The notes below the pieces were generated by a model. The model had not been told where the DNA came from. It searched no databases and was given only the letters and a program-made list of their open reading frames with translations. From NCBI GenBank assembly GCA_944371785.1, contig CALVXZ010000001.1:17210-81209 (forward strand): DNA of 64,000 nucleotides, written 5' to 3'. Every line of letters begins with the position of its first letter. The stretch's first letter is position 1. Position numbers and translations under genes: made by a program. Source of the DNA: an uncultured Clostridia bacterium (GTDB taxonomy: Bacteria; Bacillota; Clostridia; Christensenellales; DTU072). This document shows, in pieces, positions 7,032 to 60,943 of this stretch.

Positions 7032-8562
7032 TGTTCGTCAGATCCGCAGTCTTGTATTGTATGGCTTCGGCGACGTCGCCTACCCGAAGCTCCGCCCTGC
7101 CGTCCAGATCGGCAATCGTGCGCGCCACCTTTAAAATCCTGCCCACGCCCCTTGCGCTAAGCTTGTTGCTGTGAAAAGCGTATTTTAAAAGTTCTTCCGC
7201 TTTTTCGTCCAGCCTGCAATATTTGTCCAGATGCGCGTTTTGCATTTCGGCGTTGGTGTGTATGCCTTCACCTGCATATCTTGCGCGTTGGATCTCGCGT
7301 GCGGCGGAAACGCGTTTCCTGACTTCGGCGCTGGATTCGCCAAAACCATCGGAGCGCAATTCGTCGTATTTGACCATATCCACATTGACAAATATGTCGA
7401 TCCTGTCCATCAGCGGTCCGGATATTCTGCCGATATACCTTTTCCTTTCCGCGTCGGTACAGGTGCAGACCCTGTCCGGATCCTGCGAACCGTAGTTACC
7501 GCAAGGGCACGGGTTCATTCCCGCGACCAGCATGAACCGCGCGGGATATTCTATTGAACGCGCGACGCGCGTAACGGTAACCACGCCGTCTTCCAGAGGT
7601 TGCCGCAAGGTTTCCAGAGTGCGTTTGTCGTATTCGGGCATCTCGTCCAAAAACAACACGCCGTTATGCGCCAAAGACACTTCTCCGCAGGTGCTTTTCT
7701 GTCCGCCGCCTATCAGACTGACCGTCGTTGCCGTGTGGTGCGGAGTCCTGAACGGTCTGACGGTGACCATACCTTCGTTCGGATCCAGGATCCCGGCGAC
7801 GCTGTGAATCTTTGTGGTTTCCAGAGCCTCGTCGAAACTCATATCCGGCATTATGGTGGGAATGCATTTTGCAAGCATCGTCTTTCCCGCGCCGGCTGGT
7901 CCGCACATGATAAAGTTGTGTCCGCCTGCCACGGCTATTTCCAACGCACGCTTCGCCTGAGCCTGACCTTTGACGTATTTCAGATCGACTCCGTATCTGT
8001 CGTGCGCGGGTTTTGCCGCGTAAAGTTTATGCTTTACGGGCGGCAGATCTTTCATGCCTCCCAAAAAAGCGCAGGCTTCGGAAAGGTTTTTCGCCGCATA
8101 GACTTCGGCGTTAAGGACGTAAGCCGCTTCCTCGGCGTTCGCCGCCGGGATTATGAACTTTCCGTAACCGCTCTGCACGGCCGAGATCAGTAACGGCAAA
8201 ACGCCGTTGACGTGCCTCAGACTGCCGTCCAGCGACAATTCGCCGATCATAACGAAATCCTTTACGCGTTCTCCGGAGATCTGTTCGGTGCTGAGCAAAA
8301 AGCCTACCGCTATCGGAAAATCAAATGAAGAGCCTTGCTTCTTTATATCAGCAGGCGCCAGGTTTACGGTAGTCCTGCGCGGCGAAAAGTCGAAAAACGA
8401 ATTCTTTATCGCGGCGCGGACGCGGTTTCTGGACTCCTTCACGGCGCCGGAAGCAAGTCCGACGACGTCAAAAGAAGCGATACCTTTCTGTGTATCTACC
8501 TCGATATCCACGGGATAGCCTTGCAATCCGTCCAAAGCGTATGAAGTAACCGTCGCTATCAT
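7024..8562 (-). CDS. comM: Mg-chelatase-like AAA+ protein ComM/YifB
   Basis: 512 aa. N-terminal Lon-like domain, Walker A GPAGAGKTMLAKC, and VLFLDEMPE Walker B. Overlaps the dprA start by 8 nt. Confidence 0.9.
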   Translation of the reverse strand: MIATVTSYALDGLQGYPVDIEVDTQKGIASFDVVGLASGAVKESRNRVRAAIKNSFFDFSPRRTTVNLAPADIKKQGSSFDFPIAVGFLLSTEQISGERVKDFVMIGELSLDGSLRHVNGVLPLLISAVQSGYGKFIIPAANAEEAAYVLNAEVYAAKNLSEACAFLGGMKDLPPVKHKLYAAKPAHDRYGVDLKYVKGQAQAKRALEIAVAGGHNFIMCGPAGAGKTMLAKCIPTIMPDMSFDEALETTKIHSVAGILDPNEGMVTVRPFRTPHHTATTVSLIGGGQKSTCGEVSLAHNGVLFLDEMPEYDKRTLETLRQPLEDGVVTVTRVARSIEYPARFMLVAGMNPCPCGNYGSQDPDRVCTCTDAERKRYIGRISGPLMDRIDIFVNVDMVKYDELRSDGFGESSAEVRKRVSAAREIQRARYAGEGIHTNAEMQNAHLDKYCRLDEKAEELLKYAFHSNKLSARGVGRILKVARTIADLDGRAELRVGDVAEAIQYKTADLTNNA

Positions 8563-23368: not shown

Positions 23369-24232
23369 TCAACCGAATGTAGTAAATGCGCTGGCGCCGG
23401 AGGGTAAAACGACGTTTTTCCTGCCGGTAGGCAATGCCAGCTCGTATGCTTCGGTATTACCTCTGCCGTTCAATGCTATGTCTATTATGTTTTTCGTCAC
23501 CGTGGGCTGCAGCCCCGTCGTGTACGAATTTATCAGGAAAAACAGCGGATCGTCGGACAATAGCGTCACGGTCTTTTTGACGAAATCGAACACGGTGTCT
23601 TCCAACTTCCATATCTCGCCTTTCGGACCCCTGCCGTAGCTGGGAGGATCCATAATCACCGCGTCGTAACGGTTTCCGCGGCGGATCTCACGTTCTACGA
23701 ATTTGATACAATCGTCCACTATGTAACGCATCGCCTTCTGCCCGAGCCCCGAAAGTACGGCGTTTTTGCCGGCGCGTTCGCACATCGCCTTCGCCGCGTC
23801 AACGTGAGTCACTTCGGCGCCTTCCTTTGCGCAAGCCACCGACGCACCTCCGGTATAAGCAAACAGATTCAGGACCTTTATCCGTCTGCCGGACGATTTT
23901 ATCAGATTCCGCATCTTAGACCAATTATATGCCTGTTCGGGGAATATACCGGTGTGCTTAAAGCCCATAAGCTTCAATACGAACCTCAGATCTTTCCAGG
24001 ATATCTCAAATTCGTCCGGAACTTTTTTCAGGTATTCCCAGCTGCCGCCGCCGGATCTGGATCTGCGGTAAACGGCGCTGAGTCCCGGGTATTTTTCCAT
24101 ATCGAAAGGCGCTTCCCATATCACCTGCGGATCGGGGCGCAGCAAGACGACAGATCCGAAGCGTTCCAATTTCATTCCGCCGCCGGTTTCTATGACTTCG
24201 TAATCTTTCCAATCGGATGCGAGAGCTATCAT
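23369..24232 (-). CDS. Class I SAM-dependent (rRNA-type, RlmI/YccW-like) methyltransferase
   Basis: The ORF track extends to 24445, but the ATG at 24232 (MIALASDWKDYEVIETGGG) overlaps the upstream stop as ATGA. LNLFAYTGGASVACA SAM motif and VIMDPPSYGRG. Confidence 0.8.
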   Translation of the reverse strand: MIALASDWKDYEVIETGGGMKLERFGSVVLLRPDPQVIWEAPFDMEKYPGLSAVYRRSRSGGGSWEYLKKVPDEFEISWKDLRFVLKLMGFKHTGIFPEQAYNWSKMRNLIKSSGRRIKVLNLFAYTGGASVACAKEGAEVTHVDAAKAMCERAGKNAVLSGLGQKAMRYIVDDCIKFVEREIRRGNRYDAVIMDPPSYGRGPKGEIWKLEDTVFDFVKKTVTLLSDDPLFFLINSYTTGLQPTVTKNIIDIALNGRGNTEAYELALPTGRKNVVLPSGASAFTTFG

Positions 24233-27024
24233 TGTTCGCTGTCGTCGTTTTGCAATATCTCTGTCGCCAAAGATTCGTATGCGGAGGTGTTGTCGATATT
24301 TTTCAGTACCGACCAGAATTCTTTCGCGTCGGTCTTGTGGTTTTCCCTGGCAAGCAGCCTGATTATGTTTATCAAACCGAATATAAGTTCGTGTCTGACG
24401 GCGTTTCTGGCGTTCTTGAAATCGGCGTAATCCAATTCCGTACAAAGATCGCCTTTATACAGCCTCAATATATTCCGCATGATCCGCACTTTTTCGGGAA
24501 GCGATTCGGTTTCCGAAAAATCGCGGCTCAGTTTCAAAAACCTGTGGTAGTCGCAGTTCAGATCTTCCAGGTGCAATACGTAAGTGGAGTTTATATATTC
24601 CAATTTAAACTTTATACCGTACTGCGTAAGCGTTTTCCTGATAATGTTGTTCGTGGTTTTCAGATTGTTTATCGCGGAATCGTAAACGTAGTCTTTCCAC
24701 ATATAATCGATGATGGCGTTGCGGTCCATACCGTTTTCGCCGGCAAGAATATAATACAGGAACAGTTCCTTGGATTTCCTGGTCTTCCATTGTATTTCCT
24801 TGCCGTGAGAAGTTATCGAAGTGACTCCGGCACCAAGCATCGTCACGTTCAGAATGCCCATATCGCTGCCGGAACCGTTTTTGGAATCTATCAGAGCCTT
24901 TATCTTCGATACGATCTCCGGTTCGATATTGTGCGATTCGGCTTCCTGTATGATGGGACCGAAAACCGCGGTATCGGTCAGCACCATTCGCATACCGTAA
25001 TTTTCGCTGCACCTTAAAATATTAGTCACTATGGAATCGACGTCGCGTATCCCGCCCTTCGCCAACAGACAGTTCGCCGCAAGTCCCATACTGTATAACC
25101 ATACGAACGAACGGTTTTCCGCCGCGTCTATCGCCAAGGTAGCGGCTTTGTAGCTTCTGGCGCGGTTGCCCTCTTTCAACGCAGCGTACGAATAGATCTG
25201 GAACATCATCGAACGGTATTTCGGCGCCATTGCTTCGGATTCGTGCAGATACAGATTCGCAAGTTTTTCGGCATAGGCGACGCGGTTGAACAAACAGTTC
25301 AGATAACACCTGACATATACCGTGAAATATCTTTCGAAGCCGAAATCACCCGTCATCATACTGCCGTATGCGAGATCGGAATATTTCAAAGCCGATTCCT
25401 CGTTGCCGTAGAAACTTTCCATCAACGCTTTAACCGAATACAGCATATGGATATCGTTGAACAGAGAGTTGTTTATAGCGTAGCTTAAAGCCTCGTCGAC
25501 CAGACTCTTCGTGCGTTTCAGATCGCCGTCGAAATAGTTCATGGCGATTATCCTTAACGGCACGACGTACAGAGGGAAGAGTTTCTTTATCCTCTCCGCC
25601 GTTTCCATCGATTTTCTGTAATTGCCTATACCGAAATAATAAGTTTCGATGTTTTCCATCAGCTTCAGCGACCAGAAATGTTCGTCGCCGCCGGGCGCGT
25701 TCAACGCCGCTTCAGCCTCCGAAACCGAAATTTTCCCGTGTCTCAGAGAATCGGGAGTGATATATTGCAAAACTTTCAGATAAAAAGCATCGTCGCCCGT
25801 AAATTGTTCCTTCAGACCGACGAAAAACGAATTCAGCGTTTCGATATCGCCTTTTTTCAGCATACAATATATTTTCAGATAGTTCGCGCACGCGACGGAA
25901 CGCGTGGTGCCTACCTTTTTCAACGATTCGATGATCCTGTCCGTTTCCTTTAACGCAAGATCGTAATTTTTATCCCGTTTGGCAAGTATGCACGCTCCCA
26001 ACAAAGCGGTAAACGGATATTCGGCGGGATCCGCGGATATCTGCATATCCAGGTGCGCCGCGATAAAATTCATAGAGTTGATGATCTCCTCGTCGGAACC
26101 GATTATCTTCTCCAAAGTCCTGTTCATCATCCCTGCGTCGCCGTGATCGTACGCAAAAGTCAATGCGTCGTAAGACGAGACGTGTCGGAAAAGATATTCG
26201 AACAGCCTGGATTCGACGGGAACGCCGACATAATCTCCCATATGGTGATTCAGCTGTCTGTCCCTTCCGGATAAATAATCCACGAGCTCCCTTTTCAGGA
26301 CATAGAATCCGCATCCCGAAGTATGCTTGCATTCGGTAAGATAACCGCCGTGCGCACGGCACAGCGCGTTGAGTCTGGGAATAGATTCTGGGGAAATTTC
26401 GTTCAGGATCCCGACGGGGAAAGCACCGTATTTACCTATATATTTCAACAAAGCGACGTCCTCTATCGGCACCGCCGTAAGATACATTTCCGGAGTGCAG
26501 AATTCGGAAGACGGCGGCAGAGAATCCTTATCGATAATACCGGGGCATTTGGGTTCCAATTTGACAACCGGGATATTCAGATAACAATCCGAAGACATCA
26601 CGACGCGCACGTTGGAAGGCGCTTTGGAAATCAAATAGACGTATTTTTCGAAAGTGCAGTCTTTGGAAAGCAGTTCCAGCCTTTCAAAAATCAAAAGTAC
26701 GTTCTTTTCCAACGATTTAAGATAATCCAGAACGACGCGGATACCGACGTCGGAACCGTTGTATTTGGAATCGCAGAACAGAATCTGTTTTATGCGCAAA
26801 AGTTTCGCGGGCTGATCGGAAAGAACTTTTTCCGCCAAAGTTATACAAAGCTGTCTTAGGTCGTCGACAGCGGCGTTGAACCTGTAACAATATTCGAATT
26901 TTTCGGACAGCTCCTGTAAAAAGCCTTCTTTGTCGTATTCGGACGGGGCAAACAAGAAAGTCGCCGTCTGATCCGACGCCACAATATCGTTAATCAAAGC
27001 GCTTATGCCCGTTTCAAGCTTCAT
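24229..27024 (-). CDS. Large SARP-type transcriptional regulator: P-loop-less N-domain, TPR-like repeats, C-terminal OmpR-type wHTH plus BTAD
   Basis: 931 aa. The C-terminal ~230 aa are LNVTMLGAGVTSITSHGKEIQWKTRKSKELFLYYILAGENGMDRNAIIDYMWKD...NNLKTTNNIIRKTL...YVLHLEDLNCDYHRFLKL...LRLYKGDL. This follows the SARP pattern of wHTH followed by a bacterial transcriptional activator domain. The middle is helical-repeat-like. No GxxxxGK[ST] motif is seen. Confidence 0.85.
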   Translation of the reverse strand: MKLETGISALINDIVASDQTATFLFAPSEYDKEGFLQELSEKFEYCYRFNAAVDDLRQLCITLAEKVLSDQPAKLLRIKQILFCDSKYNGSDVGIRVVLDYLKSLEKNVLLIFERLELLSKDCTFEKYVYLISKAPSNVRVVMSSDCYLNIPVVKLEPKCPGIIDKDSLPPSSEFCTPEMYLTAVPIEDVALLKYIGKYGAFPVGILNEISPESIPRLNALCRAHGGYLTECKHTSGCGFYVLKRELVDYLSGRDRQLNHHMGDYVGVPVESRLFEYLFRHVSSYDALTFAYDHGDAGMMNRTLEKIIGSDEEIINSMNFIAAHLDMQISADPAEYPFTALLGACILAKRDKNYDLALKETDRIIESLKKVGTTRSVACANYLKIYCMLKKGDIETLNSFFVGLKEQFTGDDAFYLKVLQYITPDSLRHGKISVSEAEAALNAPGGDEHFWSLKLMENIETYYFGIGNYRKSMETAERIKKLFPLYVVPLRIIAMNYFDGDLKRTKSLVDEALSYAINNSLFNDIHMLYSVKALMESFYGNEESALKYSDLAYGSMMTGDFGFERYFTVYVRCYLNCLFNRVAYAEKLANLYLHESEAMAPKYRSMMFQIYSYAALKEGNRARSYKAATLAIDAAENRSFVWLYSMGLAANCLLAKGGIRDVDSIVTNILRCSENYGMRMVLTDTAVFGPIIQEAESHNIEPEIVSKIKALIDSKNGSGSDMGILNVTMLGAGVTSITSHGKEIQWKTRKSKELFLYYILAGENGMDRNAIIDYMWKDYVYDSAINNLKTTNNIIRKTLTQYGIKFKLEYINSTYVLHLEDLNCDYHRFLKLSRDFSETESLPEKVRIMRNILRLYKGDLCTELDYADFKNARNAVRHELIFGLINIIRLLARENHKTDAKEFWSVLKNIDNTSAYESLATEILQNDDSEQ

Positions 27025-27053: not shown

Positions 27054-27092
27054 ACTATAATTTGGTAAATATATTGTAAATTAATCGTAAAT
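27054..27092 (-). promoter_or_regulatory. Promoter/operator of the SARP gene: -10 TATAGT preceded by three 11-bp-phased ATTTAC direct repeats
   Basis: Plus-strand GTAAAT occurs at 27065-27070, 27076-27081 and 27087-27092. The minus strand reads ATTTAC-N5-ATTTAC-N5-ATTTAC-caaat-TATAGT (27059-27054), followed 29 nt later by the ATG, with an AGGAGA RBS. Confidence 0.45.
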
Positions 27093-27263
27093 AAAAGTCA
27101 AGTGAATTCTCAGTGAACGTTGACGTTTTAATGAAAAATTCGACTAAGCACGCGCTATATTCGTTAGTAGCTTTGTTTTTATTGTGTTTTTTTCGGTAAA
27201 ACTTTTTCGTCTTAAACCGCTCACATTGCCGCCTTCTGCCGAATATATTGAGTCGAGGTGACA

Positions 27264-27512
27264 ATGAATATAAACGATTATATCCGCAAAAAAAGCCGAA
27301 ACAACCTCTCGCCCGAAGAAGCCGTCAAAAAATACGCCGCAATGGACGAACAGAGCCTGATGTCGGAGCTTTTCAAGACGGCGGCGGAAGGCAGAGCGTC
27401 GGGAGAACTCACCGACGAGGTCATAGACAATTTCTATACGACGGTGGCTCCGATGCTTTCCCCGGAACAATCCGAACGTATGCGCGAACTCATCCGCGAA
27501 CTAAAAAAATAG
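27264..27512 (+). CDS. Small charged helical protein of unknown function (82 aa)
   Basis: MNINDYIRKKSRNNLSPEEAVKKYAAMDEQSLMSELFKTAAEGRASGELTDEVIDNFYTTVAPMLSPEQSERMRELIRELKK. GAGGTG lies just upstream of the ATG at 27264. The ORF track start at 27258 is GTG. Its stop is 3 nt before the next ATG. Confidence 0.6.
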   Translation: MNINDYIRKKSRNNLSPEEAVKKYAAMDEQSLMSELFKTAAEGRASGELTDEVIDNFYTTVAPMLSPEQSERMRELIRELKK

Positions 27513-27515
27513 GTT

Positions 27516-27920
27516 ATGGATATTTCATCTCTGTTACCGCTGCTATTGATGCAAAACGGGTTGTTTTCGGGAAAGGATTCGTCGGGCGGAATGAACGCCG
27601 CGGACCTGATGCGACTTTTCGGGGCAATGAACGGCGGATCTAAAAATCCGTTTTCCGAAATGTTCGGAAACGCCGCTAACTTCGGATCGGGGACTTCGCC
27701 GTTTGCCAATATGTTCGGCAACAATCCGTTTTCGGGGGCATTCGGCAAAAACTCCGGATCCGCGGAACGGAATAACGGCGGATTCGGTAAAAGCGCCTAC
27801 CGCGCCGAAGAAAACCGCGGATATTCGTACAACAAGGACAACCCTTCGAAAGACAATCTGAACGCGATGTTCCCCGAAGAATTGTTGAAAATGCTGCGCA
27901 ACTTAAACCGCGGAAGATAG
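27516..27920 (+). CDS. FG/Asn/Gly-rich low-complexity protein of unknown function (134 aa)
   Basis: Hydrophobic N-terminus MDISSLLPLLLMQNGLF, then repeated xFGx units (LFGA, MFGN, NFGS, MFGN, AFGK, GFGK), then a basic C-terminus. Translationally coupled to the 82-aa ORF. Confidence 0.55.
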   Translation: MDISSLLPLLLMQNGLFSGKDSSGGMNAADLMRLFGAMNGGSKNPFSEMFGNAANFGSGTSPFANMFGNNPFSGAFGKNSGSAERNNGGFGKSAYRAEENRGYSYNKDNPSKDNLNAMFPEELLKMLRNLNRGR

Positions 27921-27940: not shown

Positions 27941-27960
27941 AAAAAAAGCGCCCTGAGCGC
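27941..27960 (-). terminator. Intrinsic terminator of the candidate sRNA
   Basis: Minus strand reads GCGCU-CAG-GGCGC followed by UUUUUUU. Confidence 0.6.
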
Positions 27961-28135
27961 GACCGATCCGTGGGACTAAGTAATAACAAACCCGCGTATG
28001 TGCAGGTGGGCGAACTGTCGCTCCCTTTTGTCTTCCCCTGGCGTCGGACAAAGTCCGGGGGGCTTGACATTATGAGCCGAACGCGTAAGCCCTTTTGGAT
28101 GTTAGGGTTCCACACGCTTAGCCCCACATCTCGGC
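27941..28135 (-). ncRNA. Candidate ~195-nt structured small RNA (class unassigned; 6S-like size and closing helix)
   Basis: Predicted +1 G at 28135, 7 nt after a TATAAT box. The 5' segment GUGGGGCUAAG (28127-28117) pairs with CUUAGUCCCAC (27980-27970). An outer GCCGA/UCGGU helix also forms. Each helix contains a G.U pair that would be an A.C mismatch on the plus strand. Internal hairpin CGGAC-UUU-GUCCG (28057-28045). Ends in a GC hairpin plus U7. Confidence 0.6.
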
Positions 28136-28141
28136 AAAATT

Positions 28142-31203: not shown

Positions 31204-31357
31204 TAAACAATTTAAAAAAATGCGGTCAAGCATAACAAACGGTTGCCTTTTACCGTTGACGACCGCCGCGCACCGCCGTTACGGAAAAGAAAATCAACCT
31301 CCGCAAGCGGCTTTCGGTAATATCCGCGTCGGCTGCGGAATAATCATTACGGTGAAT

Positions 31358-32206
31358 ATGTCTGTCAGAATTCATCCGGCTTTCTGGGCGGCTGCCGCCG
31401 TAATGTGTCTTACGGGGAATCTGCCCGCGCTTGCGGCGGCGCTTGCAATAGTGCTGATCCACGAACTTGCGCACGCGGGAGCCGCTTACGAACGCGGATT
31501 CGTAATGAACAAGATAACTTTGATGCCTTACGGCGCAGTATTGTCGGGTGAAGAAAACATTCCCGAAAAAGACGCTTTTCTGATCGCCGCGGCAGGTCCC
31601 CTTTCAAACGCCGCTATATGCCTGATCCTTTGGGCGGTATGGTGGCGTTTTCCTGCGGTTTACCCTTATACCAAGGTTCTGTTCGACGTCAGCTTTGCAA
31701 TAGGAGTTTTTAACATCCTTCCGTTTTATCCCCTGGACGGGGCGAGAATGCTGTTGGCGGTTTCCAAAAATAAACTGCGCGCGCTGAAAATATTAAAAAT
31801 TTTCGGAGTGGCAGGTTCATTTCTGATGCTGGCGTGGTTTGCGGCTTCGGCTTTTCATTCGCTGAATCTTGCGCCGGCGATAATGGCTGTTCCCCTGTTC
31901 CTGGGCGCCGTAGGCGGCACCGAAAAGGAACGCTACAGGCATATTTACGAATGTATTTCGGAGGGAAAAGTCAAAAACGCGCCGTTGGAAAACAAAACGG
32001 ACACCGTGTATTGGGGGCTTAAATTGAGGACGCTTTTGAAAAGGCTGAACCGAAACTGCCTGCGCTCCTTTGTGGTTGTGGACGACGATATGAAAACGGT
32101 CAAAAAACTTTCGGAAAAGGATTTTCTGAAGCTTCTGGAAAGAAACTCCGTAAGCGCGACGCTTAAAGAAGCTTTAGAGTTTTCAGACGCGCCGCGTCCA
32201 AAGTGA
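31358..32206 (+). CDS. M50 site-2 metalloprotease, SpoIVFB-like, with a CBS-like C-terminus
   Basis: The ATG at 31358 gives MSVRIHPAFWAAAAVMCLTGNLPALAAALAIVLIHELAHA (HExxH). NILPFYPLDGARML is the S2P NxxPxxxLDG motif. The upstream 46 aa of the ORF track are ignored. Confidence 0.8.
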   Translation: MSVRIHPAFWAAAAVMCLTGNLPALAAALAIVLIHELAHAGAAYERGFVMNKITLMPYGAVLSGEENIPEKDAFLIAAAGPLSNAAICLILWAVWWRFPAVYPYTKVLFDVSFAIGVFNILPFYPLDGARMLLAVSKNKLRALKILKIFGVAGSFLMLAWFAASAFHSLNLAPAIMAVPLFLGAVGGTEKERYRHIYECISEGKVKNAPLENKTDTVYWGLKLRTLLKRLNRNCLRSFVVVDDDMKTVKKLSEKDFLKLLERNSVSATLKEALEFSDAPRPK

Positions 32207-32390
32207 TCTCTATATAATAATTCCTTCCGGACGGCGTTATTTTCAGATTAAGATCGCCTGCGCCGTATTCGAACCAACCTCCCAACACCCTGTCTACGTC
32301 GTTAAGAAGCGATTTTCCGAAACCTTCGGGCAGTCTGTCGCTGCGGTTCAGCGCCTCCGCCATACGCCTTTCGGGGTCTGATTGTTTCAT
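32163..32390 (-). CDS. minE: MinE-like topological specificity factor, N-terminally short
   Basis: 75 aa. A GGAGG RBS inside the minD 3' end lies 7 nt before the ATG. ERRMAEALNRSDR resembles the MinE contact helix (xERLxxxLxxDR). The C-terminus DVDRVLGGWFEY..LNLKITPSGRNYYIEITL resembles the MinE beta-alpha fold pattern. Starts 2 nt after the minD stop. Confidence 0.55.
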   Translation of the reverse strand: MKQSDPERRMAEALNRSDRLPEGFGKSLLNDVDRVLGGWFEYGAGDLNLKITPSGRNYYIEITLDAARLKTLKLL

Positions 32391-32392
32391 TG

Positions 32393-33145
32393 TTATTTCC
32401 TCCCGAACAAAAAGAATCTTTTCCGTTCGCTGACGCGGTAGCCTTCTTTATCTGAATCTATCGCTTCCGCCAAACGGATATACGCTTTTCTGGATTCGCT
32501 GCGCGGAGCCGAAAGCGAATTAATGCCGATCTCGTCGGATTCGGGCAATTCTCCCAATAGTTTCAGCCTCATCAGCCCCGCAATCGCGTCGCCGGATACG
32601 GCTTCGCCCTTCTGAACGCGTTCGGGAATTACCCTGTTCACTACCAATCCGCAAACGTCAACGTCGTAAACGCCCAAAGCCTCCAAGGTCCTGTCGGCGT
32701 CCTTTACCGCGCTGAGATGCGGAGTAGTCACTATAACGACTTCCTTCGCCGCGGAAACCGCGCGGTGAAAACCCTGTTCGACTCCGGCAGGAGCGTCTAT
32801 CAGCACATAATCCGCCGTTTTTGCGTAAATAGCCGTGATCGCCTGAAAAGCCGCCGCTTTTATACCCTCACTGCCTTTCACGGACGGCAGTAGCCCCACC
32901 CCGGGGAAATCCTGCGATCCTATCAGAGCTTCCTCCGGTAAAGCCCTGCCGGATATAACGTCGAACACGTCGTAAACGACCCTGTCTTCCAACCCCAAAG
33001 CGATATCCAGATTGTTCAATCCGACGTCGGCGTCGATCAGAGTCACTTTATAGCCCATTCCCCCCAAAATAATGCCTAAATTGGCGGTAACGGTTGTCTT
33101 TCCCACGCCGCCTTTACCGGATACGACGGCAATGATTCTTGCCAT
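32393..33145 (-). CDS. minD: Septum site-determining ATPase MinD
   Basis: 250 aa. Deviant Walker A SGKGGVGKTT and a C-terminal amphipathic KRFFLFGRK. Confidence 0.9.
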   Translation of the reverse strand: MARIIAVVSGKGGVGKTTVTANLGIILGGMGYKVTLIDADVGLNNLDIALGLEDRVVYDVFDVISGRALPEEALIGSQDFPGVGLLPSVKGSEGIKAAAFQAITAIYAKTADYVLIDAPAGVEQGFHRAVSAAKEVVIVTTPHLSAVKDADRTLEALGVYDVDVCGLVVNRVIPERVQKGEAVSGDAIAGLMRLKLLGELPESDEIGINSLSAPRSESRKAYIRLAEAIDSDKEGYRVSERKRFFLFGRK

Positions 33146-60206: not shown

Positions 60207-60234
60207 AAAAGCGCATACCGGGTATGCGCTTTTT
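60207..60234. terminator. Bidirectional terminator (rpe on minus, rpmB on plus)
   Basis: GCGCATAC-CGG-GTATGCGC 8-bp stem flanked by AAAA and TTTTT. Confidence 0.75.
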
Positions 60235-60292
60235 GTTGAAATTTTTATTTAAATTAGGCGGAGTATCGCGTTTTCGGCGAATTGCCGGCAGA

Positions 60293-60943
60293 TCATTGCT
60301 TCAAAGCGGCGATGACGGCGCGCGGATCTTCGGCTTTATATACCGCGGAACCCGCGACTATCATATCTACTCCGGCGGCTTTGCATAAAGCGGCGTTGGA
60401 AGCCCCTACTCCGCCGTCGATTTCTATAATCGTCGGCAGGGCCCGTTCGTCGATATACGCTCTGCCCTTTTTCACCGTTTCCAAAGTTTCCGGAATAAAC
60501 TTCTGTCCGCCCAGACCGGCGTATACGCTCATCACCAACAGCACGTCGCATTTATCCAACAACGCGATATAATCGTCCAGGCTGACGTCGGGATTAATGA
60601 CGATACCGCACTTTACGCCTTTGTTTTTAATCAGATCCAGCGCGGCGGAAGGATCGCGCGAAGCGTCCGGATGGAAGGTAATTATATCTGCGCCCGCGTC
60701 CGCAAAAGCTTCGACGTAGCGTTCGGGCTCGGTGATCATCAGATGAACGTCCAGCGGCAGAGGCGAAATCTTTTTTATCGCCGCTATCATCGGCATACCG
60801 AAGGTAATGTTTTTAACGTAAACCCCGTCCATTACGTCGCAATGAACGTAGTCCGCACCCCAATCCGCCAACGCTTTCACGTCGCGTTCCATATTGACGA
60901 AATCGGCGGAAAGTATGGACGGCGACACTATGGCCTGTTTCAT
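60293..60943 (-). CDS. rpe: Ribulose-phosphate 3-epimerase
   Basis: The ATG at 60943 (MKQAIVSPSILSADF) is preceded by AGGAG. HCDVMDG and MSVYAGLGGQKF motifs. The 51-aa basic extension in the ORF track is ignored. Confidence 0.95.
   Translation of the reverse strand: MKQAIVSPSILSADFVNMERDVKALADWGADYVHCDVMDGVYVKNITFGMPMIAAIKKISPLPLDVHLMITEPERYVEAFADAGADIITFHPDASRDPSAALDLIKNKGVKCGIVINPDVSLDDYIALLDKCDVLLVMSVYAGLGGQKFIPETLETVKKGRAYIDERALPTIIEIDGGVGASNAALCKAAGVDMIVAGSAVYKAEDPRAVIAALKQ

Follow-up and report, generated by a model that had tools for sequence, protein, structure and literature searches.

A strictly paired, uncharacterised two-gene module of Christensenellales with a sigmaK-type promoter motif, probably independent of its divergent regulator-like neighbor

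What do two small genes of no recognised family do beside a large divergent regulator-like gene, and are they under its control? The question is raised by a 64,000-nt stretch of DNA from an uncultured Clostridia bacterium of the order Christensenellales (hereafter the window), in which open reading frame 1 (ORF1; 27264-27512, + strand, 82 aa) lies just ahead of ORF2 (27516-27920, + strand, 134 aa), and a 239-bp intergenic region separates the pair from a gene for a 931-aa regulator-like protein on the − strand (24229..27024). The original prediction had described ORF1 as ending 3 nt before the ATG of ORF2 and the pair as divergent from the 931-aa gene, and both the coordinates and the ORF1 sequence that it quoted were confirmed. 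It had further taken the large protein for a SARP regulator and the pair for its most obvious target, neither of which is borne out below.

Judged by substitution pattern and codon usage, ORF1 and ORF2 are both genuine protein-coding genes. Compared with its orthologue in the related locus L001, ORF1 shows 8/2/35 differences by codon position (nonsynonymous proportion pN 0.049, synonymous proportion pS 0.70), which indicates that it is under strong purifying selection, and ORF2 shows 39/28/65 (pN 0.24, pS 0.75); in both, third codon positions differ most. With 28 confirmed window genes as the training set (real genes average 0.415), the log-likelihood ratio of codon usage is 0.41 for ORF1, whose codon adaptation is high and gene-like, and 0.25 for ORF2, with the remaining five frames over ORF2 at or below -0.07. 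Intact ORF2 genes with the identical 3-nt gap are present in L001-L004 and L008. At the junction, the ORF1 TAG stop (27510-27512) is followed by "gtt" and the ORF2 ATG at 27516, and no GGAGG-like sequence occurs within 18 nt upstream of that ATG, leaving ORF2 without a Shine-Dalgarno sequence of its own. These are the two features by which operon coupling is recognised, a stop and start a few nucleotides apart and a downstream gene lacking its own ribosome-binding site, and they uphold the tight coupling first claimed for the pair. On this arrangement the pair is co-transcribed and, since ORF2 starts 3 nt past the ORF1 stop and has no Shine-Dalgarno sequence, probably translationally coupled in the window.

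Public gene calls in L001-L004 miss ORF2 and annotate an antisense ORF of 111-112 aa instead (8171-8506, − strand), the counterpart of which in the window (27434-27748, − strand) overlaps the strongly constrained 3' end of ORF1. One could suppose from this preference of the gene callers that the antisense ORF is the real gene, or that the region is non-coding, and codon-position statistics are of no help in separating the strands, the antisense frame sharing its wobble position with ORF2. That supposition is scarcely credible: codon usage scores 0.25 for ORF2 versus a non-coding -0.07 to 0.08 for the antisense frame; the ORF2 start, N-terminal motif and C-terminal helix are kept down to 20-30% identity, also in a divergent gene arrangement in which no overlap with ORF1 exists; and a real antisense gene would have to overlap the constrained end of ORF1. 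Because the two frames share the wobble position, the antisense frame stays open whenever ORF2 avoids TTA, CTA and TCA, and the biased codon content of ORF2 would account for the annotation. By these measures the antisense ORF is a shadow ORF, systematically mis-annotated by public gene callers.

ORF1 encodes an acidic protein (isoelectric point, pI, 5.2) belonging to a widespread uncharacterised small-protein family, for which AlphaFold2 (AF2) predicts five helices at moderate confidence (predicted local distance difference test score, pLDDT, 76). A word-based search with ORF1 returned five relatives only, whereas a profile searched exhaustively against 1.84 billion cluster representatives (50% identity clusters) matched 666 proteins at E <= 1e-3, of which 86 reached E <= 1e-10, suggesting a family of at least 666 clusters at 50% identity. 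Its members, nearly all 80-150 aa long, share the core motif KYs.MSEe.LM.ELF...G.L....LD.FY.....mL.pEQ.e+m.eLI..LK. with near-invariant residues Y24, L32, G47 and Q69. In Pfam, 123 family members gave scattered chance matches only, and NCBIfam gave nothing significant for ORF1; weak likenesses to EF-hand and phage-portal proteins in a profile search against PDB (E >= 0.12) were treated as noise. The homology check that had been called for thus uncovered a large undescribed family and no characterised homologue, and the statement that neither ORF falls in a known family stands, Pfam, NCBIfam, PDB sequence and fold searches all being without significant match. Relatives of both ORFs are labeled just "hypothetical protein" in their sources, and our literature searches found neither family described. 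Some relatives (P0077, P0101 and P0155) carry a Gly/Tyr-rich N-terminal extension on the ORF1 domain, and in locus L056 the domain bears a 100-aa Gly/Tyr/Asn-rich extension of this kind. A separate protein, P0040 (1149 aa; L062, 8001-11450), contains seven matches to the ORF1 profile (E = 8e-15) and occupies the tape-measure position of an extracellular contractile injection system (eCIS) locus; we judged this to be helical-repeat or coiled-coil similarity and set it aside as a clue to function.

ORF2 encodes a basic protein (pI 9.4) in which Gly, Asn, Ser, Phe and Met are abundant; taken together, 47 relatives contain 13% Asn, 13% Gly, 11% Met and 10% Leu. A conserved motif, [LM]LP[LF][LM][LM]M, occupies residues 6-12 (LLPLLLM in the window), and a conserved amphipathic helix (MFPEELLKMLRNL) forms the C-terminus; between the termini lie one to four more short Met/Leu-rich helices joined by Gly/Asn linkers, in a middle region that is fast-evolving to the point of hypervariability. 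Apart from its conserved hydrophobic N- and C-terminal helices, ORF2 is probably disordered. Its relatives are 75-246 aa long and of low complexity; 35 of them matched 0 Pfam families, and NCBIfam and PDB were likewise without a match for ORF2. The original claim that the pair lacks recognisable features holds as regards signal peptides, which neither protein has, and fails for ORF2 as a featureless protein, given its N-terminal motif and C-terminal helix. The orthologues in L005 (8363-8968, 201 aa) and L025 (234 aa) contain an insert with CGC-type Cys clusters (GCGCNRDNDCGCKQENGCGCK) and a PPPPPP stretch, this insert resembling metallothionein or a Cys-rich coat protein; Gly/Tyr-rich stretches occur in the ORF2 relative of L056.

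The two genes are found together. A scan of species-representative genomes yielded 46 loci, all in Clostridia metagenome-assembled genomes (MAGs) assigned to Christensenellales, "Christensenella" or "Catabacter", the nearest being that of Ca. Stercoripulliclostridium merdigallinarum at 94% identity; one distant member of the ORF1 family lies in an Acutalibacteraceae genome. Every ORF1-like gene with adequate flanks has an ORF2-like neighbor (~55 loci, Christensenellales and Oscillospirales). At ~43 loci the arrangement is tandem, with the ORF2-like gene after ORF1 at a gap of -4 to +39 nt; where this gap is 3 nt or less ORF2 has no Shine-Dalgarno sequence, and where it is 7 nt or more ORF2 has its own GGAGG-like sequence. 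At 9-10 more distant loci (L048, L052 and L054-L061) the ORF2-like gene lies upstream, head-to-head with ORF1. Because no ORF1-like gene was found without an ORF2-like neighbor, the pairing appears to be obligate and to predate both arrangements. On this comparative evidence, ORF1 and ORF2 are an obligate two-gene module, independent of the neighboring regulator.

The module also has a promoter of its own. In the window, a bipartite element (27221..27249, + strand) consists of a -35 tCACA (27221-27225), a 15-nt gap and a -10 G-AATATATT (27241-27249); the ORF1 Shine-Dalgarno sequence GAGGTGA (27255..27261, + strand) follows the -10 at a distance of just 5 nt, which probably leaves a very short 5' leader. 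The element recurs 4-8 nt upstream of the ORF1 Shine-Dalgarno sequence in nearly all loci, whether or not the regulator is present (a handful have a variant element or none), and the same motif precedes the divergent ORF2-like genes of L055 and L056. Its family consensus is kmAC-N15-G[C/A]ATAnnAT. A position matrix was built from 37 non-redundant loci with the ATA triplet as alignment anchor, hence fixed by construction. The -35 reads G/T 32/37, C/A 33/37, A 31/37, C 29/37, then A/C/G; the gap is a constant 15 nt; and the -10 reads G 29/37, C/A 36/37, A-T-A, t, a/t, a/t, T 35/37. The TT and G of the sigmaA -35 TTGACA are not conserved in this matrix; canonical sigmaA promoters occur elsewhere in the window, ahead of the regulator gene and of a 6S-like RNA. 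In Clostridioides difficile, sigmaK promoters have "AC" at -35 and a -10 such as CATATAAT, while sigmaE promoters have "ATA" at -35 (PMC3789822). The Bacillus subtilis sigmaK promoter comprises a -35 of 5 nt and a -10 of 10 nt with 14-16 nt between them, and its sole difference from the sigmaE promoter is C for T at -35 position 4 (PMC517825). The 37-locus matrix has the AC at -35, a gap within the 14-16 nt range and the CATA-type -10 by which sigmaK-type motifs are defined; by motif, the promoter of the pair is thus sigmaK-type, matching the published consensus.

Conservation of this promoter with or without the regulator suggests that the pair is probably not a target of the 931-aa protein. 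A check of co-occurrence, proposed in the original prediction, finds the pair far more widespread than the regulator, which adjoins it in ~20 loci of one subclade only; the regulator gene is missing from another ~20 loci with flanks of 5-6 kb, ORF1 there following a NifS-like aminotransferase, and ORF1, ORF2 and the promoter are conserved in both groups. The only conserved operator-like sequence in the intergenic region is a block (27065..27107, + strand) of three GTAAAT direct repeats at 11-bp spacing (N5 between), then AGTCAAGTGAA. The window has a single copy of this block, where chance would give 0.06 matches. Each regulator-bearing locus likewise has one copy, at regulator protein identities down to 30%, and 39 other loci lack it. 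It coincides with the sigma70-like promoter of the regulator itself (− strand; TTGACT 27101-27096, 17-nt spacer, TACAAT 27078-27073), the repeats covering the spacer, -10 and +1 of that promoter and not the ORF1 -35, and its distance from the ORF1 promoter varies from ~35 to 130 bp. The repeats co-vary with the invariant putative recognition helix SAINNLKTTNNIIRKTL of the regulator. The block is therefore a candidate autoregulatory operator, unlike an activator site for ORF1. Direct activation of the pair by the SARP-like protein through the shared intergenic region, the earlier reading, would accord with several observations: the two are adjacent and divergent in ~20 loci despite regulator identities as low as 30%; adjacency is also kept in L023 and L024, despite a rearrangement that puts the regulator on the other side of the pair, downstream on the same strand; and the invariant putative recognition helix is accompanied by invariant repeats at 11-bp spacing, as is typical of the geometry of SARP/OmpR-type binding. 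We nevertheless consider it unlikely, because the pair and its promoter persist where the regulator is missing, the repeats sit on the regulator's promoter at a variable remove from the ORF1 -35, and the repeats have no second copy close to the ORF1 promoter or at any other place in the loci. Simple conservation of gene order may explain why the regulator adjoins the pair, since the pseudouridine synthase and methyltransferase genes on the flanks show equal synteny.

Nor do the supposed SARP domains of the 931-aa protein attain significance in HMM searches. SARPs such as ActII-ORF4, DnrI, AfsR and EmbR combine an OmpR-type winged helix with a BTAD domain, the SARP domain being N-terminal, and bind direct repeats of 11-bp periodicity that overlap the -35 of the target promoter. 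The 931-aa protein has a degenerate P-loop STAND N-terminus, a middle of MalT-like tetratricopeptide repeats (TPR) and a C-terminal winged-helix-like segment, then a helical domain. The window protein itself has no match in Pfam, NCBIfam or PDB sequences. Among 12 homologues (30-63% identity), TPR_MalT is detected in 8/12, AAA_16 in 4/12 and BTAD in 1/12 (E = 0.013); Trans_reg_C (PF00486) is detected in 0/12 and not in the window protein at E <= 1, nor in C-terminal fragments at E <= 10. With C-terminal fragments alone, BTAD (PF03704) is again found in 1/12 (E = 0.22) and never in the window protein, and the profile had no match in PDB. By eye, a segment QWKTRKSK...SAINNLKTTNNIIRKTL that is invariant in all homologues follows the OmpR/SARP pattern (LG.. 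g..i.W.tRKskeLf.yL....g..r..i.d.lW......sA.nnL.t.i..iRk.L, then a helical domain), and the predicted secondary structure of the C-terminus is H-H-H-beta-beta, then helices, at low pLDDT. The AF2 model is poor (pLDDT 59, and <50 over the putative winged helix), so Foldseek returned generic TPR proteins only, MalT domain III (1hz4) among them.

The protein thus resembles SARPs in its C-terminal pattern and in the 11-bp-spaced direct repeats beside its gene, and the AfsR-type "large SARPs" in joining an NTPase to TPR repeats. It differs in its reversed domain order, with the candidate DNA-binding end C-terminal; in the lack of any Trans_reg_C or PDB sequence match, with BTAD seen only in one homologue at the E-values above; in hexamer repeats that lie over its own promoter; and in a Clostridium-class host with no biosynthetic cluster nearby. 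The order AAA_16 then MalT-type TPR found among the homologues, together with the MalT domain III match, aligns it with the MalT/LAL STAND regulators, from which it departs in a C-terminal DNA-binding domain that is not of LuxR/GerE type and in a degenerate Walker A. It is best described as a STAND/MalT-like TPR regulator with a probable C-terminal winged helix. The window protein and those closely related to it have a degenerate Walker A (FAPSEYDKEGFL; SEYDKE for GxGKT, residues ~24-36) and distant homologues an intact one (FAPSGCGKTDFL, FAPAGTGKTDFL), which suggests that nucleotide binding has been lost in the clade of the window regulator.

Around the pair, several loci (L005, L030, L035-L050, L056, L059 and L060) share recurrent neighbors: a NifS-like class-V aminotransferase, Se_S_carrier (DUF3343-like), endonuclease III and Obg. 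The ORF1 genes of Christensenella-type loci begin 12-30 nt past the aminotransferase stop, and their promoter lies within or just after the aminotransferase gene. The pair-bearing locus L034 also has a DUF421/DUF4363 operon, the C. difficile homologue of which is sigmaG-controlled. At L055 (5258-7347; a Clostridia MAG) and L056 (5339-7636; an Acutalibacteraceae-type locus), where the ORF2-like gene is divergent, a Peptidase_S8 gene (373-381 aa) directly follows ORF1, overlapping it in L056; these subtilisin-like peptidases have no obvious signal peptide by eye. As a link to germination they were rejected: their scores (mycosin E = 1e-35, CspBA E = 1e-23) lie far below the family cut-offs, so the similarity is of a generic subtilase kind and implies no specific connection.

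What, then, might the pair do? We suggest that acidic, helical ORF1 would bind ORF2, a basic, multivalent and probably disordered protein, at the latter's short Met/Leu-rich helices and act as its partner or chaperone in a near-fixed ratio, the two being made from a transcript with a very short leader that would start at the Shine-Dalgarno sequence. The pI values are complementary, and the pair shares with coupled chaperone-client or partner pairs its 3-nt stop-start gap, a downstream gene without a Shine-Dalgarno sequence, strict co-occurrence, and an acidic helical protein beside a basic, probably disordered one; it differs in lacking homology to known chaperone families. With lower confidence, we propose that a sigmaK-type mother-cell sigma factor may read the promoter, and, again with lower confidence, that the two proteins may be a lineage-specific structural or assembly pair of late sporulation, of the spore-surface or coat kind. 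This sigmaK-driven late-sporulation pair is our best guess, tentatively held. In its favor are the absence of signal peptides, the low complexity, the fast-evolving middle of ORF2, the Cys/Pro-rich and Gly/Tyr-rich variants, the S8 neighbor in L055 and L056, and the DUF421/DUF4363 operon of L034. The promoter architecture is that of sigmaK-dependent coat and exosporium genes (C. difficile cotA, cotE, cdeC, cdeM and bclA; Gly/Tyr-rich proteins of B. subtilis), and the proteins resemble those products in being small, low in complexity, fast-evolving and without signal peptides, with Cys-rich or Gly/Tyr-rich variants among relatives. Unlike them, the pair has no sequence or fold similarity to any described coat family, and sporulation of the pair's lineage is unproven; to our knowledge, moreover, neither Met-rich helix repeats nor an obligate helical partner is a feature of known coat proteins. 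Several observations weigh against our best guess. The window's own -10 begins AATA and not CATA, a promoter scan also lists the site as a weak sigma70-like promoter (CTCACA-18-TATATT, 18-nt spacer), L027 and L028 have a perfect TTGACA at -35, and a degenerate-motif scan of the window gave 12 sites versus 7.6 expected, which is no enrichment and uninformative. A Foldseek search of the ORF1 model against PDB and BFVD found nothing below E = 0.65, so no known fold was matched. The 64-kb window holds no sporulation gene, Christensenella species in culture are reported not to form spores, and sporulation was predicted to be absent from most Christensenellales MAGs; published accounts of sporulation in the order are equivocal, and our literature searches returned no firm statement for the source genus.

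A vegetative role is almost equally probable, given that sporulation in the order is unproven. In that case the pair would form a cytoplasmic module, read by the housekeeping sigma factor through an atypical promoter whose spacer is 18 nt, ORF2 serving as a disordered scaffold, membrane-associated or condensate-forming protein and ORF1 as its helical partner. The sigma70-like listing of the site and the TTGACA of L027 and L028 speak for such a module, as do its broad retention in an order whose cultured members do not sporulate, neighbors that are all housekeeping genes, and the codon adaptation of ORF1. What tells against it is the promoter, in which the TTG that defines a sigmaA -35 is not conserved while the AC and the G[C/A]ATA extension are, a pattern unexpected for sigmaA that fits the sigmaK-type consensus. 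Alternatively, ORF2 could be the precursor of a processed or secreted peptide, its leader-like N-terminus and variable core being matured by an S8 protease, with ORF1 as accessory or immunity protein. The conserved N-terminus and hypervariable middle of ORF2, the S8 peptidase coupled to ORF1 in L055 and L056, and a radical-SAM gene near the pair in Christensenella-type loci would suit this idea, which we regard as very improbable: genes for a transporter or a modification enzyme are missing from the operon, the radical-SAM gene runs convergently and encodes an activase of the PflA/PflX type, most loci lack the S8 gene, the ORF2 C-terminus is conserved too, and low-complexity proteins of 75-246 aa are unlike known cores of ribosomally synthesised and post-translationally modified peptides (RiPPs).

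Convergent with ORF2, the region 27945-28136 (− strand) probably encodes a 6S-like small RNA of ~180-190 nt, with a near-consensus sigma70 promoter (28170-28142; TTTACA-17-TG-TATAAT) and a terminator (27960-27948) composed of a GC hairpin and a T-run. Its fold is stable (minimum free energy -76 kcal/mol, z = -3.0), and its sequence shows 92-93% identity across L001-L017, with near-invariance between species over ~178 nt, where the flanking ORF2 has 55% protein identity. The best Rfam match is 6S RNA (RF00013) at 16.6 bits, short of the 46.4-bit gathering threshold (E = 0.28), and Rfam gave no match at gathering score in the entire window. Elsewhere, in the region 31220-33145, a peptidase M50 gene, with HExxH and LDG motifs and a CBS-like C-terminus, is convergent with genes for a MinD/ParA-type ATPase and a 75-aa ORF; the neighborhood is reminiscent of minCD-spoIVFB in Bacillus, but NCBIfam does not call SpoIVFB and the peptidase is not diagnostic of sporulation. 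A 54-aa ORF downstream of rpmB (60224-60388, + strand), whose N-terminus is loosely SpoVM-like, was rejected as a gene because its ATG lies inside the rpmB terminator hairpin.

These results correct the tempting inference that divergent genes are regulator and target, flag a shadow ORF mis-annotated in public gene calls, and supply a precise, testable promoter model for the pair. By profile and neighborhood, the pair represents two previously undescribed families, that of ORF1, with at least 666 clusters, and that of its obligate low-complexity partner ORF2. Christensenellales are abundant, heritable, health-associated gut bacteria that are mostly uncultured. Should the sigmaK reading of the promoter be right, the pair would serve as a simple genomic marker of late sporulation in lineages whose spore formation is disputed, with a bearing on the transmission and cultivation of these bacteria; should it be wrong, the pair would still be a strictly co-inherited partnership of a helical and a probably disordered protein, with a vegetative function. 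It is a bolder and rather doubtful step to propose that, throughout Christensenellales and in parts of Oscillospirales, the pair with its kmAC-N15-GCATAnnAT promoter is the signature of a working late-developmental regulon of sigmaK type. Were that true, either sporulation would occur cryptically or a mother-cell sigma factor would have been put to new use in gut lineages generally treated as non-spore-forming, and the two proteins would be new spore-surface components, ORF2 a multivalent matrix protein rich in Met, Asn and Gly and ORF1 the helical adaptor dedicated to it.

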